In this document: positions 6,420 through 50,120 of the stretch, piece by piece
Layout of the letters: every line of letters begins with the position of its first letter
Position numbering within the stretch: the stretch's first letter is position 1
DNA from: Nitrospirota bacterium
Lineage (GTDB): Bacteria; Nitrospirota; Thermodesulfovibrionia; UBA6902
DNA length: 64,000 bases
Assembly: GCA_016217725.1 (NCBI GenBank)
Contig: JACRHB010000220.1
Span: forward strand, 11,970-75,969
Direction: 5' to 3'
Notes under the pieces: generated by a model
Databases searched by the model: none
Told to the model about the DNA's origin: nothing
The model's input: the letters and a program-made list of their open reading frames with translations, nothing else
Made by a program: the position numbers and the translations under genes

Positions 6420-6424
6420 AGAAT

Positions 6425-11710: not shown

Positions 11711-11713
11711 TGT

Positions 11714-23959: not shown

Positions 23960-24041
23960 GAGTTTATTTTACCTTTTATTTCGTTGATTTCTACCATAAA
24001 AATCCTTATCCTTAATGAAACAGTAAATTATGGAAAGATCC

Positions 24042-25115: not shown

Positions 25116-25284
25116 ATTTCAAAAACGATTTGATATTGTGTCGAAGGCAAATGAAGCGGCTGATGCGGATTTGGAAGCTGTTGAGAGGCAAAAGAGGGTT
25201 AGCAAGGCTTTCGTCTTTTTCAGAACTTTAAACTTTTATCAATTTTAAAGTAAAATTATCGAAGACAATTTTCAAGAGGAGATT

Positions 25285-26304: not shown

Positions 26305-26711
26305 TGGCTGGGAACAGACATCAATTTATTCTTGGTTTGGTTGTTAAGAAGATGCGGGAAGAAGGGGCGGAGCTTTACGGCATTGATGGTAACTATCCAG
26401 GGCTCTTCGGCGAAAAAGTGCCATTGCCGCCTCAAATATTAAGACACCGCCCCGATGCGATAGGAATAAAAAGTAATGGGCAATTATGCATAGGGGAAGC
26501 AAAAACAGAGGGGGATATTCTCAATACAAGGACATATGAGCAGTTGCAGGACTTCACCAGTGTTGAAATAAACGGCTCAAAGTGCGAAGTATTTGTTGGC
26601 GCACCGCAATCCAGTGAAAATAATTTTGGAAAAAGTCTGGAGAAAACCGGATTGAAAGGATGTGATAATCTCCATGTACTTTATATTCCAGACGAAATAA
26701 TCAATGATTAA
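26304..26711 (+). CDS. small PD-(D/E)xK nuclease-fold-like protein, island gene 2
   Basis: 135 aa; ...HRPDAIGIKSNGQLCIGEAKTEGD gives the D...(E)xK spacing typical of restriction-endonuclease-like folds; start overlaps the stop of gene 1. Confidence 0.4.
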   Translation: MAGNRHQFILGLVVKKMREEGAELYGIDGNYPGLFGEKVPLPPQILRHRPDAIGIKSNGQLCIGEAKTEGDILNTRTYEQLQDFTSVEINGSKCEVFVGAPQSSENNFGKSLEKTGLKGCDNLHVLYIPDEIIND

Positions 26712-30185: not shown

Positions 30186-30187
30186 TC

Positions 30188-35388: not shown

Positions 35389-36873
35389 TCAGCCTATTCC
35401 TTCGTACTTCTTCATCCTCCAGTATTCCGCATTGAGGGTCTCCACGATATAGTCAACCCTGCGCGTTCTTATCAGCTTTCCGAGCGCGTCAAGAAAGACC
35501 TTCGGGTGTCTGAAGAGTATGGTGAACAGTATGGAGTAGAAGCTTATGTTGGTCTTCTGTGTGAAATAATTCTTCACAAAGAAGGCGTTCTGCAATTTTC
35601 TTCGGATGTCCCTGAGCTCCTCTTTCTTGAACGTTATCGCCATGAGGGGAAGCTCGGGCTGTCTGTGCGCCCATATTTCGGAGAACGGCAGATTGGGATC
35701 CAGCCAGCCGTTTTTAATAGCCATGTCATAAATGTCGGTTCCGGGATAGGGCGTCAGGAAATAAAAGGCGGTATAGTCCGCCTGGATATCTTTTGCCACC
35801 TGGAAGCTCTGCTCTATATCGTCTCTGGTTTCTTCAGGGTTTCCGATAATAAAGGTTGCCAGGGTCCTGATGTCGAGGTCCTTGCAGAGTTTGAAGGAAT
35901 GTCTTATCTGCGCGGTCCTGTCTCCGGCGCCTCCTTTACCGAGCACCCTGAGGATCTTTTCGGAGCCGCTTTCAACGCCGAAATCAAGCTGCACGAGACC
36001 GCTGTCTTTCATCATTTTCATCAAACCCATGTCCGTCTGGTCCACCCTGGACTGGCAGCCCCACTTGATGTTCAGGTTTCTACGCTTTAATTCCTCGCAA
36101 TATTCTTTCACCCATTTGGGACTCAGCGTAAAGGTGTCGTCGCAGTAATATATTCCCTTTATGTCGTAATTTTTATAGAGATATTCTATTTCATCAACTA
36201 CGTTCTTCACCGAGCGTCTTCTTGTTTTTCTGCCGAAGATGTTATGGCTGCCGCAATAGATGCATTTGAAAGGGCAGCCCCTGCTTGTAACAATGGTGGT
36301 CTGGTTCTTGGTTGCGTAGCCTCTTATTATTCCGGGCGGCTTGAGGTACGGCTTCATGTCGATAAGGTGCCGCGCAGGGAAAGGGATGGTATCCAGGTCT
36401 TGTATCATTTCGCGCCTGCCGTTATCTACGATGCCGACGTTGTCGCGGTACATGACGCCTTTGACGCCTGCAAGGCTTTGGTTGTTTCCCAGCTTCTCGC
36501 ATACCTCGACAATTGTGTCTTCGCCTTCGCCGACCACTATAAAATCAACGCCGAACTCTTCCATGGTCTCTTTCGGCTTTACGGTCGTATGAACTCCGCC
36601 GGAGCAGAATATTTTGCCGGGCAATTCCTTTTTCAGGTTTTGCATCAGATGCAGCGCCCTCTGGTATCCTACCGTCAGGAAGCTGAGGCCTATCAAGTCA
36701 GGGTTGAAATCCTTTATCTCATTCAGCATGCTTGCCTGATATTCGGGGTCTGAATCATAAATCTGAACGGCGTGTCCCGCCTTTTCAAGGACTGCGGCGA
36801 TATACATCAGTCCCAACGGCGGCACAACGTTGTTGCCGTCTAACACTTGAGCATTAACCAATGTTACTCTCAT
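35389..36873 (-). CDS. B12-binding domain radical SAM protein (class B)
   Basis: N-terminal B12-binding Rossmann fold (VTLVNAQ...VVPPLGLMYIAAVLEKAGHAVQIYD) and CxxxCxxC (SRGCPFKCIYCGS). Confidence 0.85.
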   Translation of the reverse strand: MRVTLVNAQVLDGNNVVPPLGLMYIAAVLEKAGHAVQIYDSDPEYQASMLNEIKDFNPDLIGLSFLTVGYQRALHLMQNLKKELPGKIFCSGGVHTTVKPKETMEEFGVDFIVVGEGEDTIVEVCEKLGNNQSLAGVKGVMYRDNVGIVDNGRREMIQDLDTIPFPARHLIDMKPYLKPPGIIRGYATKNQTTIVTSRGCPFKCIYCGSHNIFGRKTRRRSVKNVVDEIEYLYKNYDIKGIYYCDDTFTLSPKWVKEYCEELKRRNLNIKWGCQSRVDQTDMGLMKMMKDSGLVQLDFGVESGSEKILRVLGKGGAGDRTAQIRHSFKLCKDLDIRTLATFIIGNPEETRDDIEQSFQVAKDIQADYTAFYFLTPYPGTDIYDMAIKNGWLDPNLPFSEIWAHRQPELPLMAITFKKEELRDIRRKLQNAFFVKNYFTQKTNISFYSILFTILFRHPKVFLDALGKLIRTRRVDYIVETLNAEYWRMKKYEGIG

Positions 36874-36904: not shown

Positions 36905-39313
36905 TTAACCGCAGGCGCAGCACCCGCATTCCACCTTAGGTTTTGAGCCTTTCATGGTTACTGAATAAAACTGTATAAACTGAACTTTCTTATAGAGATA
37001 ATTCTTCGTCAATTGGACGTCGGGGAAGCCTGCGTTTTCAGCGGCGTCTTTGAACCTCTTATCCGTGAGGGCTCCCGACAGGCAGGCGTTCCACAGCTCT
37101 TTGTCCCTTTTCAGATATCCGGGGACGGGCTTGTCCGAGACAATATCCGAGATGATAAATCTGCCGCCGGGCTTTAAAATCCTGTAGATCTCATCAAGAA
37201 CCTTTGTCTTGTCTTCCGTAAGGTTGATGACGCAATTGGAGATGACGAGGTCGACCGTATTGCTCTCAACCGGCAGCTCCATTATGTTCCCGCTTTTGAA
37301 TTCGACGACGTTGTAACCCAGAACCTTTGCGACTTTCTCAGCGCTTACCGTCGCCTTTCCCACCATTTCATCGGTCATGTCTATCCCGATTACTTTACCT
37401 TTAGGCCCCAGCTTTTTTGCGGCTATGAAGCAGTCTATGCCTCCGCCCGCGCCCAAATCCACGATAGTCTCTCCTTCTTTTATATCCGCAAGGGCGGCGG
37501 GATTTCCGCAGCCGTAAGACACGTCAAGGACTTCGTTCGGAATATGCTCCAGGTCTTTCGGGCTGTACCCGGTAGGGCAGTAATAATCGGCAACCGGCAT
37601 ATTGGCGGCCTTTGAAAATTTTTTCTTCACGGTCTTTGTAACGTGGCCTTTTATCTCGGGCTTGCATACTTCCTCGTCGTCTTCAACGTCTACAGACAGG
37701 ACGCAGGAGCAGTGGTAGCATCCGACCTCGAATTTCTTATCGAGCGGCTTGATCCCCGCGCCGAGATGCGACGGCAGCTTTGAGTCCATTGCGTTATAGA
37801 CAAGCGGCGCAGAGTATCCTTTACCGTCTTGTGCCGGAACCCCTTCTGAGGCCAGCTCCCAGATTATATCTTCAAACAGCGCCTTGTATGTCAAACAATA
37901 AGGGTCCCGCGCGGTTACGGAGCCTTTGCCGGTGTCAACCTCGCTTGCGTAATAACTGTGCGAGGTGCAGCCTCCCCCGCAAAAGAACTCAAGATAGCAA
38001 TCCCTGCATGCCGGTTTGTTGTGCACGCTGTTGGCCCTGCCCCTTGCCATGACCTTTGAATTCAGCCAGATGTCCTTCAGGGATTTCTTTCTTACCGAAC
38101 CGGCGTCAAAATAAGGGTCGCCGTTCAAGGATGCGCACGGATAAACATGGCCATCCGAGTTTACGCAGACTTTTTCAAAGCAGTTATTGCAAAGGTCGTT
38201 CTTCCGGCCTCTTTTTGTGCGCACGCGCACTTTCAGGGATTCTATATTATCGAGGATGAGATCCTGCTCCTTGTATGACTTTTTAAGGTTTTTCATGGCA
38301 AGGGCGATGCGCTCCGAAGGCACGAATAATTCATTAACGTTATTTGCGCCCCGGCCCTTTGCGTGCATCCAGAGGATGTTATGCTCTTTAATTCCCAGCT
38401 TTGATAAAAACCGGGAAGTCTTTAATATCTCTTTCTCGTTATATTTATTGATCGCCGTTGAGATGATAGGGGTTATTCCGATGCCGACAAGTTTTTTAAT
38501 ACCGTTCACGGCGGCGTCAAAGCTGCCTTTGCCGCGCAGCTTGTCATGGATCCCGGCATTCGGGCCTTCCAGGCTTACCTGGAGGAGGAGTTTCGGACCC
38601 ATCACCTTTTTCAACTCGGCAATCCTCCTGTCGTCAAAGAGGGTGGCGTTTGTGAGGACGATGAGCTCGCGCTTCTTTATTTTTGTAATATATTTTATGA
38701 GCTCAAATATCCCTTCTTTAATAAACGGCTCCCCCCCCGTAATATAAAACCGTTTAACGCCGAGCTTTATCGCTTCATCTACGACGCCTTTGATCTCTTC
38801 CGTAGTTAATTCCTTTTTCAGGCTGCTCCCTGCGCTGACAAGACAGTGCTTGCACCTGAGATTGCAGGCGAGGGTGTAGTATATCCACAACTCGTCCAAT
38901 TTATAAGGCGCGATCGCATTGCTTCTGCCGGGATATTCAGGTCGTTCGAGCTTTTTATTGGATACGAACTCAAGCAGTCCGGCGGCGCTGAGAAAATCGG
39001 CGACCTCTTTTCCGGCCTGTGCGGTGTCCGGGACGTTATATTTTTTACGGACGGCTTCCTGTATCTCTGAAACCGTGTGTCTGCCGTCACACAGCTTGAT
39101 GATCTCCGCCCCCGTATTATTCACGCTGATCCAGTTGGGCGCCTTGGGATCAATGAAAAGGGCTATCCCGTCTCTTTGTTTTTTAACGTATTCAGGAGCG
39201 TACAGGACGTCGTCGGGACGGAATTCCTTGAGCTCGGGATTTGTGACCCTCCAGTAATCCAGACTGTATTTTTTTATCCGATCTTCTCTTGTATCGCAGC
39301 AGCCTTGCGCCAT
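36905..39313 (-). CDS. fusion protein: PqqD-like RRE domain, radical SAM/SPASM domain and a C-terminal class I SAM-dependent (ArsM-like) methyltransferase
   Basis: 802 aa; N-terminus matches the PqqD pattern (RPDDVLYAPEYV...DGIALFIDPKAPNWISVNNTGAEIIKLCDGRHTVSEIQEAV); radical SAM CNLRCKHC; SPASM CRDCYLEFFCGGGC; MT motif I VLDVSYGCGNP...IVDLGAGGGIDCF; Cys-rich C-terminus CGCCACG. Confidence 0.8.
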   Translation of the reverse strand: MAQGCCDTREDRIKKYSLDYWRVTNPELKEFRPDDVLYAPEYVKKQRDGIALFIDPKAPNWISVNNTGAEIIKLCDGRHTVSEIQEAVRKKYNVPDTAQAGKEVADFLSAAGLLEFVSNKKLERPEYPGRSNAIAPYKLDELWIYYTLACNLRCKHCLVSAGSSLKKELTTEEIKGVVDEAIKLGVKRFYITGGEPFIKEGIFELIKYITKIKKRELIVLTNATLFDDRRIAELKKVMGPKLLLQVSLEGPNAGIHDKLRGKGSFDAAVNGIKKLVGIGITPIISTAINKYNEKEILKTSRFLSKLGIKEHNILWMHAKGRGANNVNELFVPSERIALAMKNLKKSYKEQDLILDNIESLKVRVRTKRGRKNDLCNNCFEKVCVNSDGHVYPCASLNGDPYFDAGSVRKKSLKDIWLNSKVMARGRANSVHNKPACRDCYLEFFCGGGCTSHSYYASEVDTGKGSVTARDPYCLTYKALFEDIIWELASEGVPAQDGKGYSAPLVYNAMDSKLPSHLGAGIKPLDKKFEVGCYHCSCVLSVDVEDDEEVCKPEIKGHVTKTVKKKFSKAANMPVADYYCPTGYSPKDLEHIPNEVLDVSYGCGNPAALADIKEGETIVDLGAGGGIDCFIAAKKLGPKGKVIGIDMTDEMVGKATVSAEKVAKVLGYNVVEFKSGNIMELPVESNTVDLVISNCVINLTEDKTKVLDEIYRILKPGGRFIISDIVSDKPVPGYLKRDKELWNACLSGALTDKRFKDAAENAGFPDVQLTKNYLYKKVQFIQFYSVTMKGSKPKVECGCCACG

Positions 39314-39837: not shown

Positions 39838-40692
39838 ATGATTGAGTCAAAGGTCATGAAAAAATACGACGAAGGATTAGGCACGGTTTATGAGAGGTTT
39901 ATGCTTAATGATTATTTCGAGCGCTTAATGAATTCCCACGACATAAAAAACATTCTTGAAGTTCCCTTTTACGGCATGACGGGTTTGACGGGCATCAACA
40001 GTGTCTATTTTGCCGGGAAGGGTTGCAGCATAGTATTAGTGGATACAAAAAAAGAAAACGTCTCGGAAGCGGAGAAGCTTTTGGGAGAGCTGCCTATCAA
40101 AGGGAAGTATGATGTTTTACTGCATGAAGAGCTTTCAAAGCTGCCTTTCGGCGACGACAGTTTTGATCTTGTATGGAACTTTGCTGCAATCTGGCATGTG
40201 AAGGACGCCGATCTATTACTGAAAGAGATGGCAAGGGTTTCATCCAATCTCTTATTGATCTTTATTCCAAATAAAAAACAAATAGGATATACTTTAAGGA
40301 AATATCTTATCGACAGGAAATTCTTTGATACGGTTGACGAATCGTGGATCAACCTTGATCGAATTACCGCTCATCTGAAGAAGCAGGGGATGAAGATAGT
40401 CGAAGAGGGGCTGATAGACATCCCTTTTTGGCCGGATACCGCGATCCCCGTTAAAAATATTTTTAAAAGGAATATTAAGAAAAGCACTGAATCTGACGAT
40501 AATAAGTCTACTGAAACAAAAAAGATATTTGACGGATTCTGGAATTGGGATATAATGAGCTATTATATGGGAAACAACCCCCGTCTGAAAGATAAGATGG
40601 AGAAATTGTCTTTTCTCGAAAAGATGCCGCTGCCTAAGAAAGTAAAGACTTTTTGGGCCCATCACTTGTACATTTTATGTTCAAAGCAATGA
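39838..40692 (+). CDS. class I SAM-dependent methyltransferase (Methyltransf_11/25-like)
   Basis: ...SIVLVDTKKENVSEAEKLL... and ...LPFGDDSFDLVWNFAAIWHV... pattern (motifs I-III); 284 aa. Confidence 0.55.
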   Translation: MIESKVMKKYDEGLGTVYERFMLNDYFERLMNSHDIKNILEVPFYGMTGLTGINSVYFAGKGCSIVLVDTKKENVSEAEKLLGELPIKGKYDVLLHEELSKLPFGDDSFDLVWNFAAIWHVKDADLLLKEMARVSSNLLLIFIPNKKQIGYTLRKYLIDRKFFDTVDESWINLDRITAHLKKQGMKIVEEGLIDIPFWPDTAIPVKNIFKRNIKKSTESDDNKSTETKKIFDGFWNWDIMSYYMGNNPRLKDKMEKLSFLEKMPLPKKVKTFWAHHLYILCSKQ

Positions 40693-40704: not shown

Positions 40705-41526
40705 ATGTCGGACCATACCAACCATGAGCATGATCACCATCATGACCACCACCAGGAACACGAGCATCACCATGAGCATGAGCACCAGCACGATCATCAT
40801 CATGACCATGATCATAAACCCGTAAAGGTTAAATTCAGAAGCTTCAAGATGGACAGGGCTTTTGCCTTTGACCCTAAGAAGGGCGAGAAGGGAATAATAA
40901 CCTATACTATAACGGAGCCTGCGAGGATAAGCATAAAGGTAATTAAAAAAGGGACGAGAGAGCTGTACCTTTCGACTATATTAAACTGGGAAATGCGCGA
41001 TGCGGGGACGCATACCGAGTACTGGGACGGTAAGGATTACAGCGGTAATATCATTGAAGACCTGTCTTCGGTTTTAATGGTGATGGAAGGAGAGCCGATG
41101 TCTACGTTCAAACCCGGCGCTTATTCCGTCGAAGGCCTGTCGGACGAAGAGATCATACACGGCCATAAATGGGGACATCCTCATAATTACTATCAGGAAG
41201 GCACAAATGTAATACCGGTGATCTCGATAACTTCCGTCAAAGACGGAGACGTTCTTTCAGGTATTGTGAAAGTTGAATCAAGGCTTGAAACGAGCGAAAG
41301 AGGCTACGGTGAAAAAGTCGGCTACGGCGTCAGGTACTATTTAAATAATATTCTTGTGACCGAAGAATTTTATGACTCAAAGAGCGACGGTAAATTTTCG
41401 TATGACATCGATACGACCGCCTTCCCCGACGGGGAATATATGCTGTACGTAGGGATGTGCGATCATCATCAGCACACAACCTCAAGGGGCTGCAAGGTTA
41501 AGATAAACAACAATTCCGGGAATTGA
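40705..41526 (+). CDS. His-rich (N-terminal HDHHHDHH..HEHEH..) Ig-like/FlgD-like beta-sandwich protein
   Basis: The N-terminal 37 aa are >60% His/Asp/Glu; the rest is paralogous to 42027..42737 (FDPKKGEKGIITYTITEPARISIKV / FDPALGKPATISYKLTKAGTIRLRI; YWDGKDYSGNIIED / QWDGRDASGNIIDN). Confidence 0.6.
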   Translation: MSDHTNHEHDHHHDHHQEHEHHHEHEHQHDHHHDHDHKPVKVKFRSFKMDRAFAFDPKKGEKGIITYTITEPARISIKVIKKGTRELYLSTILNWEMRDAGTHTEYWDGKDYSGNIIEDLSSVLMVMEGEPMSTFKPGAYSVEGLSDEEIIHGHKWGHPHNYYQEGTNVIPVISITSVKDGDVLSGIVKVESRLETSERGYGEKVGYGVRYYLNNILVTEEFYDSKSDGKFSYDIDTTAFPDGEYMLYVGMCDHHQHTTSRGCKVKINNNSGN

Positions 41527-41582
41527 GCGGGGGTTAAAGCCTGCGCGTTGATGCAATTGATTTTTTTAAAAGGAGACAACCG

Positions 41583-41861
41583 ATGAGCAATAACGTCATA
41601 CTTGCAAATAATGAATGGATTGAGGTCACGCCGAGGGTAAAGGTTTCAGGCCCCCACCATGAGATTTTTTTAGAAGGGGTTGTCAGCACCCAGCCGGAGA
41701 ATGACGACGAAGACATCAGATACGAAAACGGCAGGATCTTTGTAAGGCGCAGAAACGACAAGGACGACGACAGACACTTTGTCATAACTTACAGGGTCAG
41801 CGTTTACGGGCAGGAGACTTTCACGAACACACGGGTTATCGTGAGAAAGCCGTCTAAATAG
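41583..41861 (+). CDS. hypothetical protein (92 aa)
   Basis: ORF with a plausible RBS (aaggagacaaccgATG) between the two His-rich/Ig-like paralogs. Confidence 0.4.
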   Translation: MSNNVILANNEWIEVTPRVKVSGPHHEIFLEGVVSTQPENDDEDIRYENGRIFVRRRNDKDDDRHFVITYRVSVYGQETFTNTRVIVRKPSK

Positions 41862-41896
41862 AGTCTGTTTATAAATGGCATAAAACGTTCAACAAG

Positions 41897-41977
41897 GTGT
41901 CATTCCCGCAGTCTGTTGAGCGGGAATCCAGAGAATACAAAGATAGATTCCGGCTTAAGGACTGCCGGAATGACAGA
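41897..41977. mobile_element. MITE-like GTCATTCCCG element, copy 3
   Basis: ggtgtcattcccgcagtctgttgagcgggaatccag...gattccggcttaaggactgccggaatgacagac. Confidence 0.55.
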
Positions 41978-42026
41978 CACGCAAATTGAATTAATACACA
42001 GACACTAATCAAGGAGAGATTTATCT

Positions 42027-42737
42027 ATGAGCATAGATTCAAAAGAAAAAAATGAAGGGACGAATAAGCTGCATAAGATAAAGATAAATACGCCGGATAC
42101 GGGATATGAGCCTTTCCCGGTATATATAATCAACAGGTCTACATATGAAGCGCTGAATTTCGATCCGGCGCTCGGCAAGCCTGCGACCATCTCGTATAAG
42201 CTGACTAAGGCCGGCACGATACGACTGAGAATTGCAAGAAGGGATAACCCCGGGCTGATACTCTTAACCCTTCTGGACTGGACCGAACAGCCGTTCGGTG
42301 AACATAAAGTCCAATGGGACGGCCGTGACGCGTCGGGGAATATCATCGACAACAAAAAAATATTGATACACTTTGACGCCAAAGACCAGGCCTTAGGCGG
42401 GAAACATCGGGAGCATGACAAACTCAACTGCGGTGATCCGAAGCTTATTATCAAGACAAATCCGGAGACGCTCCGGAACATTAAAGGTAATTTAGAGCTC
42501 AGGGCTTCTTTTTCCGACGGACCGGACCGGATAAAATGGAGCTCCGGCTGCGAGGTCAAATATTTTATTGATTACGGTCTGATTAAAAAGGAAGTCTTTC
42601 AGAAAGTTCAAAACGAGTTCTCTCTTGTAATAGACACTTCAAAGTTAAGCGCCGGCGAGCATCTCATCACTGTTAATATCAGCGACATGAACGATCACGT
42701 GGGAACCGCCGGTTTAAGAATTACCGTCGCCGGTTAA
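42027..42737 (+). CDS. Ig-like/FlgD-like beta-sandwich protein, paralog of 40705..41526, lacking the His-rich N-terminus
   Basis: Shared blocks as listed for 40705..41526. Confidence 0.6.
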   Translation: MSIDSKEKNEGTNKLHKIKINTPDTGYEPFPVYIINRSTYEALNFDPALGKPATISYKLTKAGTIRLRIARRDNPGLILLTLLDWTEQPFGEHKVQWDGRDASGNIIDNKKILIHFDAKDQALGGKHREHDKLNCGDPKLIIKTNPETLRNIKGNLELRASFSDGPDRIKWSSGCEVKYFIDYGLIKKEVFQKVQNEFSLVIDTSKLSAGEHLITVNISDMNDHVGTAGLRITVAG

Positions 42738-42943
42738 AAAATTACGTATGCCTAAGAACGGGCACATGATCAGATTTGGAGCTGGAGCACCATAAGCATA
42801 CTCATATAATCTCGTCGCTTCACATGTGACGCTGCCTGAAATATCAGGAAGCGGCTTGAGCTAACGCCGTAAAAGAAATTGCACATATCCTTCCCGGCTG
42901 CAGATATGTATATGTGACCGAGAGGGCGAAGCATTGCCGATTA

Positions 42944-43099
42944 CCGTGATCCGTGTCCGTTTAACGTGACCGTAAAAGAGGAAGGATCAATGAACAATGT
43001 GCAATTAACAATTAAAATCTCGCTTCCGCAATTGCTCATTGATAATTGTTCATTGTTAATTGTTTTTACGGACACGTTAACCGGACACGGTTCACAAGA
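42944..43099. repeat. ~155-bp long hairpin element (GTGTCCG / CAATGAACAATTG words) immediately upstream of cbiM; partner copy at 46001-46165 downstream of cbiO
   Basis: Outer arms cgtgatccgtgtccgtttaacgtgaccgtaaaa / ttttacggacacgttaaccggacacggttcac; inner palindromes caattaacaatt and caatgaacaat/attgttcattg. Confidence 0.7.
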
Positions 43100-43111
43100 A
43101 AGGAATACCCC

Positions 43112-44134
43112 ATGCATATCCCCGACGGTTATCTGAGTCCGCAAACGTATATACCTCTTTACGGGATAATGCTCCCGGTCTGGTACTGGGGCTCCAGGAT
43201 ATTAAAGAAGACTTTAAATGCGCGGCAGATACCTTTTTTGGCCCTCGGCGCCGCTTTTTCATTCGTCATCATGATGTTCAATATCCCGATACCCGGCGGC
43301 TCGACGGGGCATGCAGTCGGCGCTGCATTGATCGCAATTCTGTTAGGACCGTGGGCGGCGCTTATGGCCGTATCCATGGCGCTCATAATACAGGCGCTGC
43401 TTTTCGGCGACGGAGGGATTACCGCAATAGCGGCGAACTGTTTTAATATGGCTTTTATAATGTCTTTTTCAGGATATTATATTTATAAGCTTCTGAGTTT
43501 AAATTCCGGCTCCAATATCGCCCGAAGGGTCTTTGCTGCAAGTGTGGCGGCGTATATATCTATAAACCTGTCCGCCTTTTTTACCGCTGTAGAATTTGGA
43601 ATTCAACCGTACATTGCGCACAAGCCGGACGGCACTCCTTTGTACGGGCCTTACGGCTTGAACGTAGCGGTCCCGATAATGACGATTGAGCACCTTGCAT
43701 TTTTTGGATTTGTAGAGGCGCTGGTGACGGGATTGGTAGTCGCTTACATTGCGAAGACCGAGCCGGAGATGCTGAACATCTCCACTCCTGCGTTACAGAC
43801 GGCAGCAGACCGGCCGGCTTTTTCAAAGACGGCGAAAAGGCTCTGGATCGGACTCGCCGTACTTATTATTCTGACGCCCCTCGGGCTTATCGCCTCAGGA
43901 ACCGCATGGGGAGAATGGGGAGCGGAGGATCTGCTCGCAATATTCGGCTTTGTGCCTCAGGGGTTGAAAGGGCTTTCTAACGTTTGGCATTCTTTTTTCC
44001 CGGATTACTCGGTTCCGGGGATGGAGGGTCCCTTAATGCTTGCAGCGGGATATATCCTCTCCGCGCTTATCGCTACGGGTTTGATAGTGTTGACGGCCTT
44101 CGTCATCAGCAGGATAATGTTCAGAGGAAGATAG
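43112..44134 (+). CDS. cbiM: ECF-type cobalt/nickel transporter substrate-capture component CbiM/NikM with an extra C-terminal 2-TM (CbiN/PDGLE-like) extension; start at MHIPDGYLS
   Basis: Hallmark N-terminus MHIPDGYLS; ~7 TM in the first 245 aa; additional ~95 aa with 2 TM. Confidence 0.85.
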   Translation: MHIPDGYLSPQTYIPLYGIMLPVWYWGSRILKKTLNARQIPFLALGAAFSFVIMMFNIPIPGGSTGHAVGAALIAILLGPWAALMAVSMALIIQALLFGDGGITAIAANCFNMAFIMSFSGYYIYKLLSLNSGSNIARRVFAASVAAYISINLSAFFTAVEFGIQPYIAHKPDGTPLYGPYGLNVAVPIMTIEHLAFFGFVEALVTGLVVAYIAKTEPEMLNISTPALQTAADRPAFSKTAKRLWIGLAVLIILTPLGLIASGTAWGEWGAEDLLAIFGFVPQGLKGLSNVWHSFFPDYSVPGMEGPLMLAAGYILSALIATGLIVLTAFVISRIMFRGR

Positions 44135-44135: not shown

Positions 44136-45065
44136 TTGTCTTTCCATTGGCTTAAAACAGACCACAGCCTTCCACCGGCTCCTCAGTCAAACGGAGCTCC
44201 AAATAAGAAGGGATACCTCGAGAAGACCCTCAGGGAGATCACGTCGTTTTTTGTCAACGGGATATTCTCGGAGGAGACAACCGCAAAGGCGGGATTTCTT
44301 CAGGCGCTGGACCCCAGGGCCAAGGTTTTTACCCTGGGGATTTTCGTTATAGCGGTCACCCTGTATAAAAACATCTACATCCTACTCGGCGCATACGCAT
44401 TTACTATTTTATTAGCGCATCTTTCAAAAATCGGCATCGGATTTTTTCTGATCCGAGTCTGGCTTTTTATCCCGCTGTTTTCAGGGATCATAGCCCTTCC
44501 GGCGGTGCTTAATATCTTTGTCCCGGGGGATCCGCTTGTTGACCTTGTTACATTAGAAAAAGAGATTATGCTTGGCCCGCTGAAAATTCCTCAGACCGTC
44601 TCGGTGACGAAACAGGGACTTTTATCGGCGTCCGTATTTGTTATGAGAGTTGCAACGTCGGTATCCCTTGTAGTGCTTCTGACCCTCACGACAAAGTGGC
44701 CTCATATTCTGAAGTCGCTGAGCGTATTCAGGGTGCCCCAGTTCTTCACCTTTATTCTCGGCATGACGTACAGGTACATACATCTGCTATTGCGGCTTAT
44801 TGAAGACGTGCATCTTGCGCGGCGAAGCAGGACTATTGGAAAGGAGAAGGCGAGCTCGGGACGGAAATGGATCATATCACAGATAAGGTTTGTCATGAAG
44901 AAGTCGCTCAGCACGGGGGAGCAGGTTTATTCGGCTATGGTTTCAAGGGGATTTATGTATGAGCTGAAGACAGCCGATAATTTCAAGATAAAGCCTATTG
45001 ATTATGCCTGGTCGGCGTTTGCCGTCACTGTAACGGCTGTCACACTGGTGTTAAATTGGATATAG
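44136..45065 (+). CDS. cbiQ: ECF transporter transmembrane (T) component CbiQ
   Basis: 309 aa; 5-6 TM; Arg-rich cytoplasmic loop (...HLARRSRTIG...) typical of EcfT/CbiQ coupling helices. Confidence 0.8.
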   Translation: MSFHWLKTDHSLPPAPQSNGAPNKKGYLEKTLREITSFFVNGIFSEETTAKAGFLQALDPRAKVFTLGIFVIAVTLYKNIYILLGAYAFTILLAHLSKIGIGFFLIRVWLFIPLFSGIIALPAVLNIFVPGDPLVDLVTLEKEIMLGPLKIPQTVSVTKQGLLSASVFVMRVATSVSLVVLLTLTTKWPHILKSLSVFRVPQFFTFILGMTYRYIHLLLRLIEDVHLARRSRTIGKEKASSGRKWIISQIRFVMKKSLSTGEQVYSAMVSRGFMYELKTADNFKIKPIDYAWSAFAVTVTAVTLVLNWI

Positions 45066-45117: not shown

Positions 45118-45999
45118 ATGGACATAGACATCAAATTAGATTCGGAGCTCGACAATATCTTTGAAGTCAGAAACCTTCATTACTCTTTCCTGGGAAGATA
45201 TCCGGCGCTGTGCGACGTTTCCTTCGATGTTAAAAGAGGAGAAAGGGTGGTCGTGCTCGGGGCCAACGGCTCCGGGAAGTCAAGCCTCATGAACCTCCTT
45301 GACGGACTGGTTTTCCCACAGAAGGGCGAGATCAGATTCATGGGGCGGGAGATAAGCGAGCAAAATCTGAAGGATGAGAATTTCAACAGGTTCTTCAGGA
45401 ACAAGGTGGGTTTTGTATTCCAGAATTCCGACGTCCAGCTCTTTTCGAGCACTGTTTGGGATGAAATCGCGTTCGGCCCTTTGCACCTCGAGCTGCCTCA
45501 CGATGAGGTGAAAGCGAGGGTTGAAGATATATCGGGCCTGTTAGGGATAAAGAAATTGTGGGAAAGGGCGCCGTACCAATTGAGCGGCGGCGAGAAGAAA
45601 AAGGTAGCCATTGCATCCACGGTCGTCGTCAATCCGGACGTCCTTTTATTGGACGAGCCGACAAACGGCCTGGACCCGAGGAGCCAGGCCGAGCTTGTCG
45701 ATTTCCTGCAGGAGCTGTATCAGGCGGGCAAGACGATAATAATCTCCACTCATGACCTGAACATCGCCAAAATGATCTCGGACCGCGCGATAGTCCTGAA
45801 TGAATCCCATACCGTTGAGGCTGAAGGAGCCACCCGCGACATCCTTGAAAACACCGAGCTCCTTCTGAAAGCCAATCTCATCCATGAGCATATACATTGC
45901 CACGACGGCGAGATCCACAGGCACCCTCACGGCCACGTCGGAGAGCACGACCACGAGCACGGCCGCGGCCATGCGCACAAACACAGTCATAAGCATTAA
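45118..45999 (+). CDS. cbiO: ECF transporter ATPase CbiO with a C-terminal His-rich tail
   Basis: Walker A GANGSGKSS, signature LSGGEKKKVAIA, Walker B LLLDEPTNGLD; the C-terminal ~40 aa HEHIHCHDGEIHRHPHGHVGEHDHEHGRGHAHKHSHKH. Confidence 0.9.
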   Translation: MDIDIKLDSELDNIFEVRNLHYSFLGRYPALCDVSFDVKRGERVVVLGANGSGKSSLMNLLDGLVFPQKGEIRFMGREISEQNLKDENFNRFFRNKVGFVFQNSDVQLFSSTVWDEIAFGPLHLELPHDEVKARVEDISGLLGIKKLWERAPYQLSGGEKKKVAIASTVVVNPDVLLLDEPTNGLDPRSQAELVDFLQELYQAGKTIIISTHDLNIAKMISDRAIVLNESHTVEAEGATRDILENTELLLKANLIHEHIHCHDGEIHRHPHGHVGEHDHEHGRGHAHKHSHKH

Positions 46000-46000: not shown

Positions 46001-46165
46001 ACTCATACGTGTCCGGTTAGCGTGTCCGTGTCCGTAAAACAATTATCAATGAACAATTACCAATGAGCAATTGCGGCAATAGTTTTTTAATTGTTAATTG
46101 CACATTGTTCATTGATCATTCCTCTTTTACGGTCACGAAAAACGGACACGGATCACGAAATCGGT
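46001..46165. repeat. ~160-bp long hairpin element downstream of cbiO (partner of 42944-43099)
   Basis: acgtgtccggttagcgtgtccgtgtccgtaaaacaattatcaatgaacaatt...aattgttaattgcacattgttcattgatcattcctcttttacggtcacgaaaaacggacacggatcacg. Confidence 0.7.
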
Positions 46166-46169: not shown

Positions 46170-46889
46170 ATGCCTTCCGTTGCCGGAATAAAAGCGAGAG
46201 ACGGTTATCTGTTTTTCGTCAACGCCTTGACCGAAGATCCCAGGAACACATCGGCAGTCGTCGAATTGAGCGACCGCTGCGGGGCCTTGGTCCTTACGAG
46301 CAATGAGAAGCAATTGCAGAGATTAAATAACGTCCTCAATAAGTGCGTATCCTGTACACTGAATAAGACGGATGACTTAAGCGATGACCTCGTCAACAAG
46401 GCCGTCTCTTTTCTGAAGAAAGAATTTCATGAGGAGCCGTCGTATAAGACCAAACCTCTGACCTTCCTCCTTCTCGTGGTCGGGACGAACAGTGGCGCGC
46501 AGGGGCGACTTGAATACATCTATATAAGGCACAGGGTTTCGGAAAGGCTTGAAAAAGAGGGCGCGCGGGAGTTCGTGACAACGTTTGACGTAGAGCCTCC
46601 CGTGCCTGCGCATAATGTCTTTTACGGCGATTCGGACATTATCCAGTATCTTGCGCAGCAGGCGGACGGAGAGAATATCCCGATGAATGCCGTCAAGATC
46701 CTGGCCTGTCTTTCAATCCCCGAAGCTTACTATAAGGATAGCGCATTACAGTCAGGCGTCAGCATGGCGTTGCTCTCTGCTGAAAACGGTTTCGAATGGG
46801 TCAGGACGGATGAAGTTCTTTCATTGGCCGACAAAGCTGAAAAAGTTAATTCAATGCTTGTCGAAGGGCTGAATGATATATGGACATAA
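46170..46889 (+). CDS. hypothetical protein, weak proteasome alpha/beta-fold-like N-terminus
   Basis: VAGIKARDGYLFFVNALTED...VVELSDRCGALVLTSNEKQ loosely resembles the proteasome-subunit pattern TAVGIKGKDGVVLAVEK...KIFKIDDHIGCAFAGL; no Thr1. Confidence 0.35.
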   Translation: MPSVAGIKARDGYLFFVNALTEDPRNTSAVVELSDRCGALVLTSNEKQLQRLNNVLNKCVSCTLNKTDDLSDDLVNKAVSFLKKEFHEEPSYKTKPLTFLLLVVGTNSGAQGRLEYIYIRHRVSERLEKEGAREFVTTFDVEPPVPAHNVFYGDSDIIQYLAQQADGENIPMNAVKILACLSIPEAYYKDSALQSGVSMALLSAENGFEWVRTDEVLSLADKAEKVNSMLVEGLNDIWT

Positions 46890-47557
46890 TCGAAGGCATA
46901 GAAAAAAGAAAGAGCATCAGGGCCTTCAAGCCTGATCCGGTGCCGAGGAAAGCCCTTGAAAAAGTCTTGCAAGCCGCTGTTGCCGCGCCTTCCAAAGGCA
47001 ATTCGCAGATATGGGAGTTCGTCGCCATTACCGGTAATGAGCTGAAAGATATCAAGGTGATGCTCGGGGAGCTGCTTAAAACCGACTTTATCCCTTTAAT
47101 GAAGCTAACGGATGAAGAAGCGCCAAGCCCCGCCCTTGAAAAGGCAAAGATCAGGAGCAGCCGGAATAAAGAAGAGATGTCAAAGATATTAAATCCGATG
47201 GGCCTTGATTTTGATGACTTTATGCTTGAAGGGACTTTCAGATTCTTCGATGCCCCCGCAGCCGTTATGGTTTTCATAGAGGATATTTATTTGAAAAACC
47301 TTCCCCATCTTTTAAGTGTCGGGGCGGCGGTCCAAAATATGCTGTTGTCCGCGCAGACGCTCGGGTTAGGCACGTGCTGGATAGGAGGCGTATGGAGATA
47401 TACAAAGCAGATAAGAAAGATCCTTGGAATACCTGATAACAAGATGCTGGTCTCATCGGTAGCCATAGGATATCCTGATAACGACTCTCCGATAAACAAA
47501 TATAAATCAGGCAGGGACTCTATCGACGATTTGGTTCAATGGAAGGGATTTGAATAA
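46880..47557 (+). CDS. nitroreductase-family (FMN-dependent) oxidoreductase
   Basis: N-terminal RKSIRAFKPDPVP...L..AAVAAPSKGNSQIWEFV and C-terminal CWIGG nitroreductase signatures. Confidence 0.85.
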   Translation: MDIIEGIEKRKSIRAFKPDPVPRKALEKVLQAAVAAPSKGNSQIWEFVAITGNELKDIKVMLGELLKTDFIPLMKLTDEEAPSPALEKAKIRSSRNKEEMSKILNPMGLDFDDFMLEGTFRFFDAPAAVMVFIEDIYLKNLPHLLSVGAAVQNMLLSAQTLGLGTCWIGGVWRYTKQIRKILGIPDNKMLVSSVAIGYPDNDSPINKYKSGRDSIDDLVQWKGFE

Positions 47558-47683: not shown

Positions 47684-48400
47684 TTGTCTCTGACAATATT
47701 ATTAAGATCGCCTGACGGCATCGTCATGGCGGCTGACAGCAGGGTGACGGAGGGCTATACTCTGCAGGGACCGAAGACCAAGGACGACTCCGTTAAGTTC
47801 ATTCGGTTGAGTGATGATTTCGGGGTCATGACGCACGGTCTTTACGACATAGGCACTGACGGGATCAATGCATTAAAAGAGAAGGTCGGCGGAAGCGGGA
47901 ATGGGATTTCATCTTTAGCAGAGCTTATCGGCAATGCGAAGAAAATCTTTGCAGAGGTAAATAATGAATGGTCCGTGAAGAACCCGGAAGTAAAACGAAG
48001 GGACAAAGATACCGGTTTCATAATTGGCGGGTTCGACAGACGGGAAGCGGCGTTTAAAGTCTATAACTTTGAAAGCCCTGAATTTGCTCCGAAACCGGTG
48101 GCCGGCAATTTCTTCATCGCAGGCCAGTGGCAGATAGCCAGGTTTTTGCTGATGAAATTGAACGGCGGTAAAAAGAATATCAATTCCCTTAAAAAGCTGT
48201 CAGCCGTTCTGCTTACGGCAACGGCTTCGGTCGACAAAACAGTCGGCGGCCCCATGCGTATTGCCTCCATTACGGCATCAGAAGGATTTCGATGGGTCGA
48301 TGACGAGGAGATGAAAAAGCTGGCGGACTTTAATGCGTCGTTCCGCAGGGTATTTCAGGAGACCCTCGAAGCGTCTCTGAACGCAGTTTCAAAAAATTAG
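47684..48400 (+). CDS. proteasome beta-subunit-like Ntn-hydrolase fold protein (HslV/20S-beta/Anbu-like)
   Basis: N-terminus MSLTILLRSPDGIVMAADSRVTEGY matches the proteasome-type consensus T-[IL]-h-h-x-x-x-DG-hhhAAD-[ST]-R-x-T; 238 aa. Confidence 0.6.
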   Translation: MSLTILLRSPDGIVMAADSRVTEGYTLQGPKTKDDSVKFIRLSDDFGVMTHGLYDIGTDGINALKEKVGGSGNGISSLAELIGNAKKIFAEVNNEWSVKNPEVKRRDKDTGFIIGGFDRREAAFKVYNFESPEFAPKPVAGNFFIAGQWQIARFLLMKLNGGKKNINSLKKLSAVLLTATASVDKTVGGPMRIASITASEGFRWVDDEEMKKLADFNASFRRVFQETLEASLNAVSKN

Positions 48401-48611: not shown

Positions 48612-50120
48612 ATGAACGTGATCTTGGTTCAACCCGCGACTTCGGACAGGGGATTTATTCATCTGGGATTGGGCTTTATTGCAGCCTCCCTGGAGCAAAG
48701 GGGGCATAAGGTAAGCATCCTCGATCTCGGGATAGAAGGCGAGTCCTCAAAAAAGATAAGAAGGATAATCCAGGAGGCGGCCCCGGAAGTGGCGGGGATA
48801 ACGGCGCTTACCCCTACTTATCCGACGGCGCTCAGGATGGCGCAGTTGATAAGGGAGATAAATCCCCGGTGCATAACCGTCTTCGGAGGGACTCATCCCA
48901 CTATATTGACCGAGGAGGTCCTTAATGAGCCCTTCGTGGACATTGTGGTAAGGGGCGAAGGGGAGATAACCATGTGCGAAATATTGGACGCCCTGAAGGA
49001 CGGAAAAGGCCTTTCGAGTATTTCAGGCATTGTCTATAAGGAAAACGGGAAAACGGTCTATAACCCCGACAGGCCTTTCATAGAAGACCTGGACACTCTC
49101 CCGCCGATACCCTGGCATCTCTTTAAAGTGGAAAAATATACCGGCAACCTGAACGGGAGAAGGGCGGTGGGCCTCTCCGCTGCCAGGGGATGTCCTTTCA
49201 GTTGTGTCTTTTGCTACAGAGGCCCGGCTGCCGGCAAGGTCGTAAGGTACTGGAGCCCTGAAAGGGTCGTAAAGGAGGTCAAGCGCGTTAAGGAAAAATA
49301 TAATATAACGGCCTTCCACTTCTGGAACGACGTATTTACTTACGACAAAAAGTGGGCGATCACCCTGTGCGATATGATCATAAAGGAGAAACTGGACATT
49401 GAATGGGACTGTCAGACCAGGGCGGACCTGATCAATGAGGAAGTATTGAGGAAGATGAAAGAGGCGGGCTGCACCGCGATAATGTTAGGCGTGGAGAGCG
49501 GGAGCAATGAGATCCTGAAGCACGTGAACAAGAAGCTGACCAAAGAGCAGATATATGACTCCTTCCAATTGCTCCATCAGGTGGGTTTTGAGACCACCGC
49601 AACTTTTACAATGGGTCTTCCCTGGGACACCAAAGAGACCATCCAGGAAACCATCGATTTCGCCAAGGCGATAAACCCGAGTTTTGCGATGTTCTACGTA
49701 GCCACTCCGTTCCCCGGCTCCCCCATCTGGGAGATCTGCCTTCAGAAAGGGATACCGCTTTCGAGAGACTGGGAGAATTACAGGATCATTCCTTTTGAGA
49801 TAGACCTCGATAAATTCGCCCCTGTCTTTGATACGTCCAGATTGTCCGTAGAGGATTTAAAGAGGTTCATCAAGACCGCCCAGATAGAATTTCAGGTCGG
49901 CAGATTTAAAAAGGGGCAGAGATTAAGGGGTCTGAAAAATATCTACGAGATCTTCGCCTTGATATTCAGACGGAGCAAATCGGTGACAAAGCTGATGCAA
50001 TTGATTTTCAGGGTGCTCGGGGATACGCTCTATCTCATCAGAATAAAGTGCAGAAGTGCAAAAGTGCAAAAGAGCAATAGCGCAGAAGAGCAGAAGAACA
50101 AAAGTGCAAAAGAGCAATAG
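48612..50120 (+). CDS. B12-binding domain radical SAM protein; the C-terminal tail is encoded by a word-repeat
   Basis: MNVILVQP...HLGLGFIAASLEQRGHKVSILD B12-like domain; CxxxCxxC (ARGCPFSCVFCYR); the last ~25 aa (KCRSAKVQKSNSAEEQKNKSAKEQ) read through the GTGCAGAAG repeat. Confidence 0.85.
   Translation: MNVILVQPATSDRGFIHLGLGFIAASLEQRGHKVSILDLGIEGESSKKIRRIIQEAAPEVAGITALTPTYPTALRMAQLIREINPRCITVFGGTHPTILTEEVLNEPFVDIVVRGEGEITMCEILDALKDGKGLSSISGIVYKENGKTVYNPDRPFIEDLDTLPPIPWHLFKVEKYTGNLNGRRAVGLSAARGCPFSCVFCYRGPAAGKVVRYWSPERVVKEVKRVKEKYNITAFHFWNDVFTYDKKWAITLCDMIIKEKLDIEWDCQTRADLINEEVLRKMKEAGCTAIMLGVESGSNEILKHVNKKLTKEQIYDSFQLLHQVGFETTATFTMGLPWDTKETIQETIDFAKAINPSFAMFYVATPFPGSPIWEICLQKGIPLSRDWENYRIIPFEIDLDKFAPVFDTSRLSVEDLKRFIKTAQIEFQVGRFKKGQRLRGLKNIYEIFALIFRRSKSVTKLMQLIFRVLGDTLYLIRIKCRSAKVQKSNSAEEQKNKSAKEQ

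Follow-up and report, generated by a model that had tools for sequence, protein, structure and literature searches.

Paralogous Ig-like proteins, one with a histidine-rich tail, encoded with nickel uptake genes in a Nitrospirota bacterium: candidate nickel capture and hand-over proteins

This work concerns three adjacent genes located between positions 40705 and 42737 of a 64,000-nucleotide stretch (hereafter the window) of contig JACRHB010000220.1 from a Nitrospirota bacterium (assembly GCA_016217725.1). These genes encode two immunoglobulin (Ig)-like proteins, A and B, the first of which carries a histidine-rich N-terminal tail, and between them a small protein of 92 amino acids (aa), s92; they are followed by genes for a nickel importer of the energy-coupling factor (ECF) type. 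Based upon the relatedness of A and B, their predicted cytoplasmic location, their conserved His and Cys motifs and the neighbourhood of their homologues with nikR and nikMNQO, we tentatively interpret A and B as cytoplasmic nickel capture and hand-over proteins, an interpretation to which we assign a probability of roughly 0.42. The gene cluster to which the A, s92, and B core belongs is probably devoted to intracellular nickel, and it is conserved across phyla yet is without a known nickel enzyme or chaperone. To our knowledge, only a handful of types of nickel-trafficking proteins have been described, nearly all of them through the maturation of hydrogenase, urease or carbon monoxide dehydrogenase (CODH). 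If A and B bind nickel, they would represent a new structural class of nickel-handling proteins and would point to an undiscovered nickel-dependent process in bacteria of anaerobic groundwater and sediment.

All three open reading frames (ORFs) were confirmed in the ORF table (Table 1), and the deposited proteins, which originate from a Nitrospirae/Nitrospirota metagenome-assembled genome (MAG), are all labelled "hypothetical protein", the name that is also found on every public copy of the A family. That these are real genes is indicated by their conservation in other genomes, where the numbers of clusters found were 71 for A, 41 for B, and 14 for s92. Proteins A and B share 22% identity across nearly the full length of their structured part, and as the E value of 8e-18 obtained by BLASTP in a single comparison is well past chance, they are true paralogues, B lacking the His-rich tail. 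The maximum Kyte-Doolittle means over 19 residues are 1.17 for A, 0.24 for s92, and 0.79 for B, and a hydrophobic segment is absent from all three. The previous in-frame stop lies only 4 (A), 15 (s92), and 6 (B) codons before the start, leaving no room for a concealed signal peptide, and by prediction the three proteins of the window are therefore cytoplasmic. A preliminary description of this DNA had reported the three reading frames, shared blocks between A and B, a poly-His/Asp/Glu N-terminus of 37 aa in A and the lack of a signal peptide, and each of these observations was borne out. The ribosome-binding site of A (GAGGAGGT) is strong and overlaps the stop codon of the upstream methyltransferase gene (MT), which is predicted to be translationally coupled to A.

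To examine these proteins in other organisms, 50 related loci were fetched, on 47 of which the cluster proteins were mapped by tblastn, while L048 to L050 were read from gene calls and translations. The homologues of A form two groups, into which the homologues of B also divide. Those of group a show at least 60% identity to A, have no signal peptide or transmembrane segment and come from MAGs labelled as Nitrospirota/Thermodesulfovibrionia, "Deltaproteobacteria", Pseudomonadota, and Ca. Aerophobus. Members of group b (38–53% identity to A) begin with a signal peptide, a lipobox or a membrane anchor, after which a shorter stretch rich in His often comes, and their sources are Acidobacteriota and one Bacteroidota MAG. 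The family is rare: a set of 185,579 species-representative genomes yielded just six loci, all of them from MAGs.

The first 37 residues of A include 20 His and 11 Asp or Glu and are encoded by an imperfect (CATGAG)n hexanucleotide array of about 15.5 copies. A His-rich tail of 14–53 aa, which usually starts with MH(D/E)H and ends with HPEGHGGH, is present in 40 of the 41 group-a homologues, and its retention despite variable sequence and length indicates selection on its composition. The matches made by the tail only are compositional, viz. HypB_prefix_1 (E=2.5e-4, 22.4 bits against a cut-off of 30), a ZIP loop and an RcnA-type loop. By analogy with other His-rich tails, a storage or chaperone role is conceivable for that of A.

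The remainder of A is confidently predicted to consist of two beta-sandwich domains. In an AlphaFold model based upon 67 homologues (predicted local distance difference test, pLDDT, 85.9; predicted template modelling score, pTM, 0.80), residues 1–32 are disordered, and a beta-sandwich at about residues 44–131 is joined by a linker with one short helix (132–172) to a second one at 173–267. Taken individually, A and B remain below the Pfam thresholds for FlgD_ig (15.6–19.2 vs. 27 bits) and Big_7 (18.4–18.6 vs. 24.1 bits), and the N-domain bears the WDGxDxxG signature of FlgD_ig. No family for A was found in Pfam, NCBIfam, or PDB, and the family profile gave zero matches in PDB at E<=1. When a profile of 67 A sequences was compared with 1.84 billion representative proteins, 68 matches were obtained at E<=1e-30, about half of which were two-domain proteins of approximately 230–325 aa plus a few short fragments and the remainder giant multi-repeat proteins. 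The latter, of which the profile retrieves hundreds, match either the N-domain or the C-domain of A, and in Pfam analysis the multi-repeat matches contain, exactly at the matched regions, FlgD_ig (E=2e-71) and Big_7 (E=3e-105 to 4e-118), the N-domain of A retrieving the former and the C-domain the latter. The model and these relatives place A and B, at the level of fold, in the FlgD_ig and Big_7 superfamilies, with one predicted beta-sandwich of each kind, which bears out the FlgD/Ig-like fold guessed from the letters of the sequence. Domains of these two types are normally found in secreted or surface proteins and Ig-like proteins are unusual in the cytoplasm, whereas A and B are predicted to be cytoplasmic and carry family-specific His/Cys motifs that are absent from the generic domains.

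In the alignment of 67 sequences, the A family has two invariant motifs. The linker contains HGHxxGHxHN, with H158 and H160, and the last hairpin contains GMCDHHQH, where C252, D253, H254, and H257 are invariant. The B family is characterized by KHxxHDxxxCxDP and GEH...DDxxDH, with H127, H130, C135, H212, and D220 invariant in the family alignment and D223 and H224 nearly so. The invariant His and Cys residues of both proteins are candidate metal ligands. A 2-His-1-carboxylate site composed of D253, H257, and H160 was also considered and was dropped because D253 corresponds to a residue that we take to be generic to the Big_7 consensus. The third protein, s92, is a small single-domain Ig-like protein that is highly conserved (58–92% identity) and is encoded directly upstream of B in 18 of 18 group-a loci (these and the following group-a neighbourhood counts refer to non-duplicate loci with enough flanking room). 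The inverted repeat between s92 and B in the window is possibly an attenuator or terminator hairpin; hairpins rich in GC are present at the corresponding place in L004, L011, L022, L030, L034, and L045.

The assignment to nickel comes from the gene neighbourhood of the relatives. In group a, 17 of 20 loci have MT immediately ahead of A, and 12 of 14 (all but the window and L002) have nikR directly after B; as the gap between B and nikR in L003 is only 4 nt, these two genes are probably co-transcribed. (A B-NikR fusion protein, P0099, comes from a single metagenome contig with a junction resembling a possible frameshift and was not used as evidence.) In nine loci the order after nikR is Nik(MN)-NikQ-NikO-u239-nitroreductase-u238, and eight of these continue with an M20 amidohydrolase and a CsaB-like pyruvyl transferase. 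Adjacency to nikR is an accepted predictor of the nickel specificity of an importer, and CbiN is the cobalt-specific component, as opposed to the NikN type (Zhang et al. 2009, PMC2667541). The NikR proteins of the cluster retain the nickel-site signature H..H...HVHLD...C, and the S-component of the relatives starts with MHIPDG and carries a PDGLE/NikN-type domain, not CbiN. The ATPase NikO of the window ends in a His/Cys-rich tail (HEHIHCHDGEIHRHPHGHVGEHDHEHGRGHAHKHSHKH, 45880–45999), the core of which, NLIHEHIHCHDGxxHxHxHGH, is present in eight of nine cluster-linked orthologues with 11–16 His in the last 45 residues, and which looks like a cytoplasmic metal-binding extension of the importer. 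We know of no description of such a tail on NikO. In L009, the s92-B-nikR unit adjoins a different nickel uptake component, a CbiM fused to DUF4198. It is because of these four features, viz. the NikR signature, the MHIPDG/PDGLE importer, the NikO tail and the arrangement in L009, that nickel is assigned to the cluster.

The transporter genes of the window conform to this pattern. The true start of Nik(MN) is the MHIPDG at 43109, with which all orthologues begin, and the CbiN model falls far below its threshold on this protein (16.9 vs. 142 bits). A search for nikR in the window was negative, and the 370 bp that separate B from nikM can be aligned with the nikR-nikM spacer of L003, L011, and L016, which implies that nikR was lost here. 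The preliminary description had joined A and B with a Ni/Co transporter in one metal module. Its link to nickel uptake stands in the relatives, where nikR and then Nik(MN)QO follow B, but the transporter itself is no fixed companion of the A family and the module is much larger, extending well beyond 40705–42737 to include MT, a proteasome-like pair and the nitroreductase. A consistent association with flagellar or adhesin loci would have spoken against a metal function; flagellar genes occur neither in the window nor in any of the 50 related loci. Genes for hydrogenase, urease, and CODH are likewise absent from the vicinity of the cluster.

A protein whose N-terminus is Cys-Cys-Gly/Ser accompanies A and B more constantly than any other partner, the transporter included. 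In the cytoplasmic loci of the relatives, it consists of 1–7 tandem CCGTAKSPCIEVELHPDVAEN units of 21 residues each (consensus CCGTAKSPCIE(I/V)ELHP(D/S)V(A/E)EN), followed by an acidic tail, and the protein starts directly with M-CCG. In 10 loci the gene for this repeat peptide separates A from s92, whose start it often overlaps and to which it is translationally coupled; in 4–5 more loci it is present elsewhere in the cluster. About one-third of the cytoplasmic loci, including the window, have no peptide gene nearby: no repeat peptide and no ORF with an N-terminal CC[GS] was found in the window, nor any remnant in the 56 bp that separate A from s92. Two Nitrospirota loci without the peptide at this place retain mini-ORFs with good ribosome-binding sites between A and s92, LCCRAVKNQ* in L010 (10754–10783) and MCSGTTLSLVI* in L003 (between 8228 and 8357), which suggests that the peptide gene decayed recently in this lineage. 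Genes for PEP-CTERM (exosortase-sorted) secreted proteins were observed directly upstream of the repeat peptide in loci of the deltaproteobacterial type (Table 1). Literature searches, which extended to nickel in connection with RiPPs (see below) and NikR and to nickel together with proteasome-like proteins and nitroreductases, returned neither the repeat peptide sequence nor anything that resembles the A/s92/B trio or the whole cluster, and the proteins of a paper on nickel in cable bacteria differ from A, s92, and B.

In group b, the gene following A encodes a secreted protein whose signal peptide ends in ...A|CC(G/S) in nine of nine loci. This rule was set from L006, L007, L008, L014, L039, and L040 and then predicted for L048 to L050, all three of which complied (TVSA|CCGTWEPPP, PADA|CCGALYPP, and VVYA|CCGNGPVPPP, respectively). 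Past the N-terminus these proteins vary and are 110–270 aa long; most contain an LWPPNHK-type domain, to which s92 is suggestively related (collinear but weak hhalign match, E=0.0017, probability 15%; 0.9% earlier with fewer sequences). In the same group, L006/L015, L007/L013, L048, and L049 encode B as a fusion with a di-haem cytochrome c, and B is present as a tandem duplicate in L008, L014, and L050. As A, then a protein with N-terminal Cys-Cys-Gly/Ser, then B are found in both groups, they constitute a universal core, the cytoplasmic version of which appears from its neighbours to be wired to nickel import and sensing and the periplasmic version to cytochrome c.

Metal centres that arise by N-terminal processing are known from nickel superoxide dismutase (NiSOD), with its "nickel hook" (HCxxPC after SodX cleavage), and from the histidine brace of lytic polysaccharide monooxygenases, CopC, and X325, which forms after signal-peptide cleavage; in addition, the tripeptide Asn-Cys-Cys provides N2S2 nickel models. 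The likeness to our proteins lies in the Cys-Cys-Gly/Ser exposed by cleavage in all nine periplasmic cases, and in the cytoplasmic M-CCG and the repeats ...EN|CCG..., whereas the CCG proteins show no sequence similarity to NiSOD or histidine-brace proteins and the gene bearing the motif is absent from the window. A free amine with two adjacent thiolates would be chemically suited to a planar N2S2 nickel site. The M-CCGTAKSPC terminus also recalls what we take to be the high-affinity nickel site MCTTCGC of Escherichia coli HypB and the EEGCC motifs of Hpn. The Cys-Cys-Gly partners supply a concrete chemical hypothesis, a thiolate site of the N2S2 type, which joins the cytoplasmic and periplasmic versions.

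The regulatory DNA of the cluster was also compared. The motif ATGTGACCGAGAGGGCGAAGC, recognized in the spacer upstream of nikM, is the right half of a palindrome, TGTCAGT-N11/12-ACTGACA, that is found just upstream of nikM, and only there, in three Nitrospirota loci (L003, L011, and L016); it is a candidate NikR operator, of which the window retains a degenerate copy. Other upstream motifs in this search included no convincing palindromes. Promoters of the sigma-54 type (TGGCAC-N5-TTGC) precede MT in L018/L019/L027 and L034 and both MT and the peptide in L003; matches upstream of the MT-A operon or the peptide gene read TGGCACGTTATTTGCT, TGGCACGATAGTTGCT, TGGCATAACATTTGCG, and TGGCATATTATTTGCT, and in the window no clear match was seen. 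A gene pair for a HisKA protein and a sigma-54 activator follows A directly in L002. A 150-bp palindromic element of the window (Table 1) is missing from L003, L011, and L016, and its 27-nt arm CCGTGTCCGTTTAACGTGACCGTAAAA recurs in intergenic DNA as a dispersed repeat with four copies in the window against 0 expected by chance, which could be an element of the REP (repetitive extragenic palindromic) or MITE (miniature inverted-repeat transposable element) kind or the binding site of a regulator.

According to the interpretation that we favour, the Nik(MN)QO importer, whose ATPase has a His/Cys tail of its own, would carry Ni(II) into the cell, where the disordered poly-His/acidic tail of A would trap and concentrate the arriving ions. 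These would then move to the structured His/Cys site of A, formed by H158 and H160 of the inter-domain linker and by C252, H254, and H257 of the last hairpin of domain 2. Protein B, with an analogous site but no tail, may partner A, together with s92, in passing the nickel onward, and in most relatives the acceptor would be the thiolate-rich protein that starts with Cys-Cys-Gly. Several observations weigh against this proposal. The His/Cys motifs would suit Zn, Cu, Co, or Fe equally well, D253 presumably counts for little as part of a metal site, and no homologue of A or B is known to bind nickel. Pure capture and transfer leaves MT, the nitroreductase and the proteasome-like pair without a role. 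In the window, which has neither nikR nor a Cys-Cys-Gly partner, the proposed acceptor must be absent or encoded elsewhere. Pairs of MT and A occur without s92, B or a transporter within 5–10 kb (L001, L026, L032, and L033), and the cluster is therefore divisible into two sub-units, MT-A and (peptide)-s92-B-nikR-transporter with the genes that follow. A common NikR operator was searched for upstream of MT-A and of s92-B and was not found, and several MT-A promoters look sigma-54-dependent instead of NikR-controlled. Lastly, group b has no nikR and no transporter, and its linkage to cytochrome c points to redox chemistry, not to simple storage.

This last observation leads to the best supported of the alternatives, which we nevertheless consider rather unlikely. 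According to it, A, s92, and B would be subunits of a new metallo-redox enzyme or electron-transfer complex, nickel-dependent in its cytoplasmic form, with the invariant His and Cys residues as the active site and the Cys-Cys-Gly of the partner as a thiolate metal centre or carrier arm; electrons would come from cytochrome c in the periplasm or from the nitroreductase-type flavoprotein in the cytoplasm, and the tail of A would serve only to acquire the cofactor metal, as does the tail of His-extended Cu,Zn superoxide dismutases. The fusions of B to di-haem cytochrome c, the syntenic nitroreductase-family protein of nine cytoplasmic loci and the order A, CCG-protein, B in nine of nine periplasmic and most cytoplasmic loci are consistent with such a complex, and the very high conservation of s92 is more in keeping with a catalytic or structural core than with a buffer. 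However, no substrate or reaction can be proposed, A, s92, and B show no similarity to known enzyme folds beyond generic Ig-like domains, a copy number of 1–7 for the CCG unit is odd for an enzyme subunit, and the window has A, s92, and B without a CCG protein.

A related proposal, which in our judgement is doubtful, makes A, s92, and B the dedicated machinery of a metal centre that has not been described before, a "thiolate hook" formed by an N-terminal Cys-Cys-Gly. Its carriers may be the tandem repeat peptides in the cytoplasm and, in the periplasm, Ig-domain proteins after cleavage of their signal peptide, and this allocation is equally doubtful. The same holds for the roles it would assign, with the Ig-like pair loading, holding or redox-cycling the centre and MT, the flavoprotein and the proteasome-like pair processing the hook. 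If true, the hook would constitute a class of protein cofactor not known before, a nickel (or nickel/copper) thiolate, found so far only in uncultivated Nitrospirota, Desulfobacterota-like, Aerophobota, Acidobacteriota, and Bacteroidota lineages.

Still less probable, in our view, is that the cluster matures a peptide in the manner of peptides made on the ribosome and modified after translation (RiPPs). Here the protein made of tandem CCGTAKSPCIEVELHPDVAEN units would act as a precursor with several cores, A, B, and s92 as peptide-binding scaffolds or modifiers, and MT, the nitroreductase-type dehydrogenase, the proteasome-like pair and the M20 amidohydrolase as the enzymes of tailoring and cleavage, giving a small thiolate-rich nickel-binding peptide or cofactor. 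The 1–7 nearly identical units with their acidic tail, coupled to s92 and placed right after A in 10 loci, accord with this, as do the hairpin after the peptide-s92 unit, which is common behind highly expressed precursor genes, the remote proteasome-family paralogues u238 and u239 and the synteny of the amidohydrolase and nitroreductase across taxa. Yet no RiPP recognition element (RRE), YcaO, lanthionine synthetase, multinuclear non-haem iron-dependent oxidative enzyme (MNIO) or radical S-adenosylmethionine (SAM) enzyme is conserved in the cluster, and a classification as a known RiPP biosynthetic gene cluster was rejected since neither a known maturase family nor an RRE is shared across loci. 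Moreover, the PqqD-radical SAM protein near MT in the window is not found in other loci, the peptide has no leader, the periplasmic CCG is the N-terminus of folded proteins and not of a peptide, and about one-third of the cytoplasmic loci are without the peptide gene.

The remaining readings are largely excluded, including that of transporter accessories. A module that handles cobalt instead of nickel and supplies the cobalamin-dependent radical SAM enzymes encoded around it is highly improbable. The five B12-binding radical SAM genes counted in the window (four listed as such in Table 1, plus related ones), the NCBIfam designation of the S-component as "cobalt transporter CbiM" (402.8 vs. a cut-off of 401 bits) and the missing nikR of the window would agree with it, but the orthologous transporters (64–74% identity) adjoin a nikR whose nickel site is intact, the N component resembles PDGLE/NikN and not the cobalt-specific CbiN, Rfam gives zero matches in the whole window and hence no cobalamin or NiCo riboswitch, and in most other loci the radical SAM genes lack synteny with the cluster. 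Lastly, that A and B are extracytoplasmic NikK/NikL-like capture proteins, or surface, adhesin or FlgD-type flagellar structural proteins, is scarcely credible, for despite folds typical of secreted proteins, distant homologues with signal peptides or anchors and PEP-CTERM proteins within the cluster in L002, L004, and L023, signal peptides and transmembrane segments are lacking in A, s92, and B, both in the window and in all close relatives, DUF4198/NikK similarity and a FlgD N-terminal domain are absent, flagellar genes are missing from the loci as noted above, and MT-A pairs and periplasmic homologues occur without the transporter.

Compared with known systems, A resembles HypB (N-terminus), UreE and SlyD (C-termini), CooJ, and Hpn/Hpn-2 in its disordered stretch rich in His, Asp, and Glu, its predicted cytoplasmic location and its place beside genes for nickel uptake and regulation. 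Unlike these proteins, its structured part, like that of B, is a predicted pair of Ig-like sandwiches with no GTPase, UreE, FKBP, or CooJ domain, and it comes as one of a paralogous pair with a third Ig-like protein and MT. As their defining domains are absent (no Pfam/NCBIfam match and no PDB relative by sequence), A is outside these families and may, by analogy, be a nickel-handling accessory that bears a His-rich tail on a completely different scaffold. In comparison with the NikR-regulated Nik(MN)QO/NikKMLQO importers (PMC2667541), the downstream genes of the window are a standard Nik(MN)QO set, and in the relatives nikR is immediately upstream of them in the classical arrangement. Proteins A, s92, and B match no described component of ECF nickel importers, having no transmembrane segment, signal peptide or similarity to NikK, NikL, or NikN, and they also occur without a transporter. 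NikR-regulated ECF nickel importers were reportedly the subject of work by Rodionov and colleagues in 2006. The candidacy of A and B as NikK, NikL, or NikN was rejected in view of the missing hydrophobic segment, the lack of a DUF4198 (PF10670) match at E<=1 and the presence of PDGLE on NikM in the role of NikN. That of A as FlgD was rejected as well, the FlgD_ig match being sub-threshold over 18–23 residues, PF03963 being absent, and the NCBIfam flagellar rod modification model giving E=0.079 and 12.2 vs. 258 bits. Carrier heterodimers of the SoxYZ type, which are also Ig-like, are among the closest known systems.

Table 1. Positions of genes and sequence elements in the window and in related loci
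Locus	Feature	Position	Strand	Remarks
Window	MT, class I SAM-dependent methyltransferase	39838..40692	+	Pfam Methyltransf_11 E=9.8e-13; deposited as MBI5410247
Window	Protein A	40705..41526	+	273 aa; start MSDHTNHEHDHHHDHHQEHEHHHEHEHQHDHHHDHDHKP; locus tag HZA14_12875; deposited as MBI5410248
Window	His-rich N-terminal tail of A	40705..40815	+	37 aa, disordered; pLDDT <50 for residues 1-32
Window	s92	41583..41861	+	92 aa; deposited as MBI5410249
Window	Inverted repeat between s92 and B	41898..41975	+	16-nt arms, 94% complementary
Window	Protein B	42027..42737	+	236 aa; locus tag HZA14_12885; 100% identical to MBI5410250
Window	Conserved motif ATGTGACCGAGAGGGCGAAGC	42912..42936	+	Spacer alignment with L003, L011, L016
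Window	Palindromic element, 150 bp	42946..43095	.	32-nt arms, 91% complementary; between motif ATGTGACCGAGAGGGCGAAGC and nikM
Window	CCGTGTCCGTTTAACGTGACCGTAAAA arm copies	8237-8263; 42951-42977; 43064-43090; 46125-46151	+; +; -; -	
Window	Nik(MN): CbiM/NikM + PDGLE (NikN-type)	43109..44134	+	Pfam CbiM E=2.5e-61, PDGLE E=4.9e-12
Window	NikQ/CbiQ, ECF T-component	44136..45065	+	Pfam CbiQ E=1.3e-28; TIGR02454 153.8 vs. cut-off of 111.8 bits
Window	NikO/CbiO ATPase	45118..45999	+	ABC_tran E=2.8e-33
Window	u239	46170..46889	+	u238 paralogue; hhalign vs. u238 family probability 97.4%, E=1.4e-11
Window	Nitroreductase-family flavoprotein	46880..47557	+	Pfam Nitroreductase E=2.7e-30; generic member; syntenic in 9 loci
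Window	u238	47684..48400	+	Pfam Proteasome E=0.0018, sub-threshold
Window	Radical SAM gene	31014-32396	+	
Window	Radical SAM gene	35389-36873	-	B12-binding
Window	Radical SAM gene	48612-50120	+	B12-binding
Window	Radical SAM gene	55580-56863	+	B12-binding
Window	Radical SAM gene	58639-60057	+	B12-binding
L002	Repeat peptide	6319-6540	-	Further repeat peptide genes exist in other loci
L003	Repeat peptide	5600-5818	+	
L004	Repeat peptide	3970-4434	-	
L012	Repeat peptide	2157-2450	+	
L017	Repeat peptide	1258-1614	+	
L034	Repeat peptide	1946-2107	+	
L045	Repeat peptide	350-709	+	
L006	Secreted CC(G/S) protein	8938-9456		
L007	Secreted CC(G/S) protein	8963-9484		
L008	Secreted CC(G/S) protein	2128-2934		
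L014	Secreted CC(G/S) protein	1129-1593		
L039	Secreted CC(G/S) protein	1156-1593		
L040	Secreted CC(G/S) protein	3394-3723		
L048	Secreted CC(G/S) protein	2641-3105		
L049	Secreted CC(G/S) protein	3554-4066		
L050	Secreted CC(G/S) protein	2383-2829		
L001	PEP-CTERM gene	~6440-6530		
L002	PEP-CTERM gene	6586-7314	-	
L004	PEP-CTERM genes	4463-5176; 5415-6095	-; -	
L023	PEP-CTERM gene	1147-1908	-	

Among the other genes of the cluster, the trio u239-nitroreductase-u238 is syntenic with nikR/nikO across taxa, u239 following nikO, or nikR directly in L009 and L022. The profile of the u238 family retrieves only proteasome and Anbu chains from PDB, and these weakly (E=0.002–1). Its members have an invariant N-terminus, MSL(T)..(A)ADSR.T, with invariant S2, D18, R20, T22, and K38, which aligns with the Thr1/Asp17 region of proteasome beta subunits, and u238 is a candidate remote N-terminal nucleophile (Ntn) hydrolase of the proteasome/Anbu kind, u239 being likely its non-catalytic partner.

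Elsewhere in the window, an 802-aa fusion protein encoded at 36905–39313 (-), divergently from the MT-A operon, unites three domains, one PqqD-like, one of the radical SAM/SPASM type and one resembling arsenite methyltransferases (NF008823, E=6e-74), and has a Cys-rich end, ...VECGCCACG; it is not conserved beside A elsewhere. Radical SAM genes are unusually dense in the window, and the four that encode B12-binding proteins are BchE/HpnJ-like paralogues, interleaved with genes for a TMEM260-like glycosyltransferase and a CsaB-like pyruvyl transferase, which suggests a separate cluster for envelope or lipid modification with a high demand for cobalamin. The region 24000–32000 differs in its GC content (0.35–0.41 vs. 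about 0.48 elsewhere), shows strong positive GC and AT skew and contains a DndB-like gene (29160–30185), and it is probably a horizontally acquired island for defence or DNA modification. Lastly, a palindrome scan yielded, as a chance find, the near-identical palindromes TTAGTTGTTAGT...ACTAACAACTAACAAC at about 3174–3215 and 11671–11712, which are likely to be shared terminator or repeat elements.

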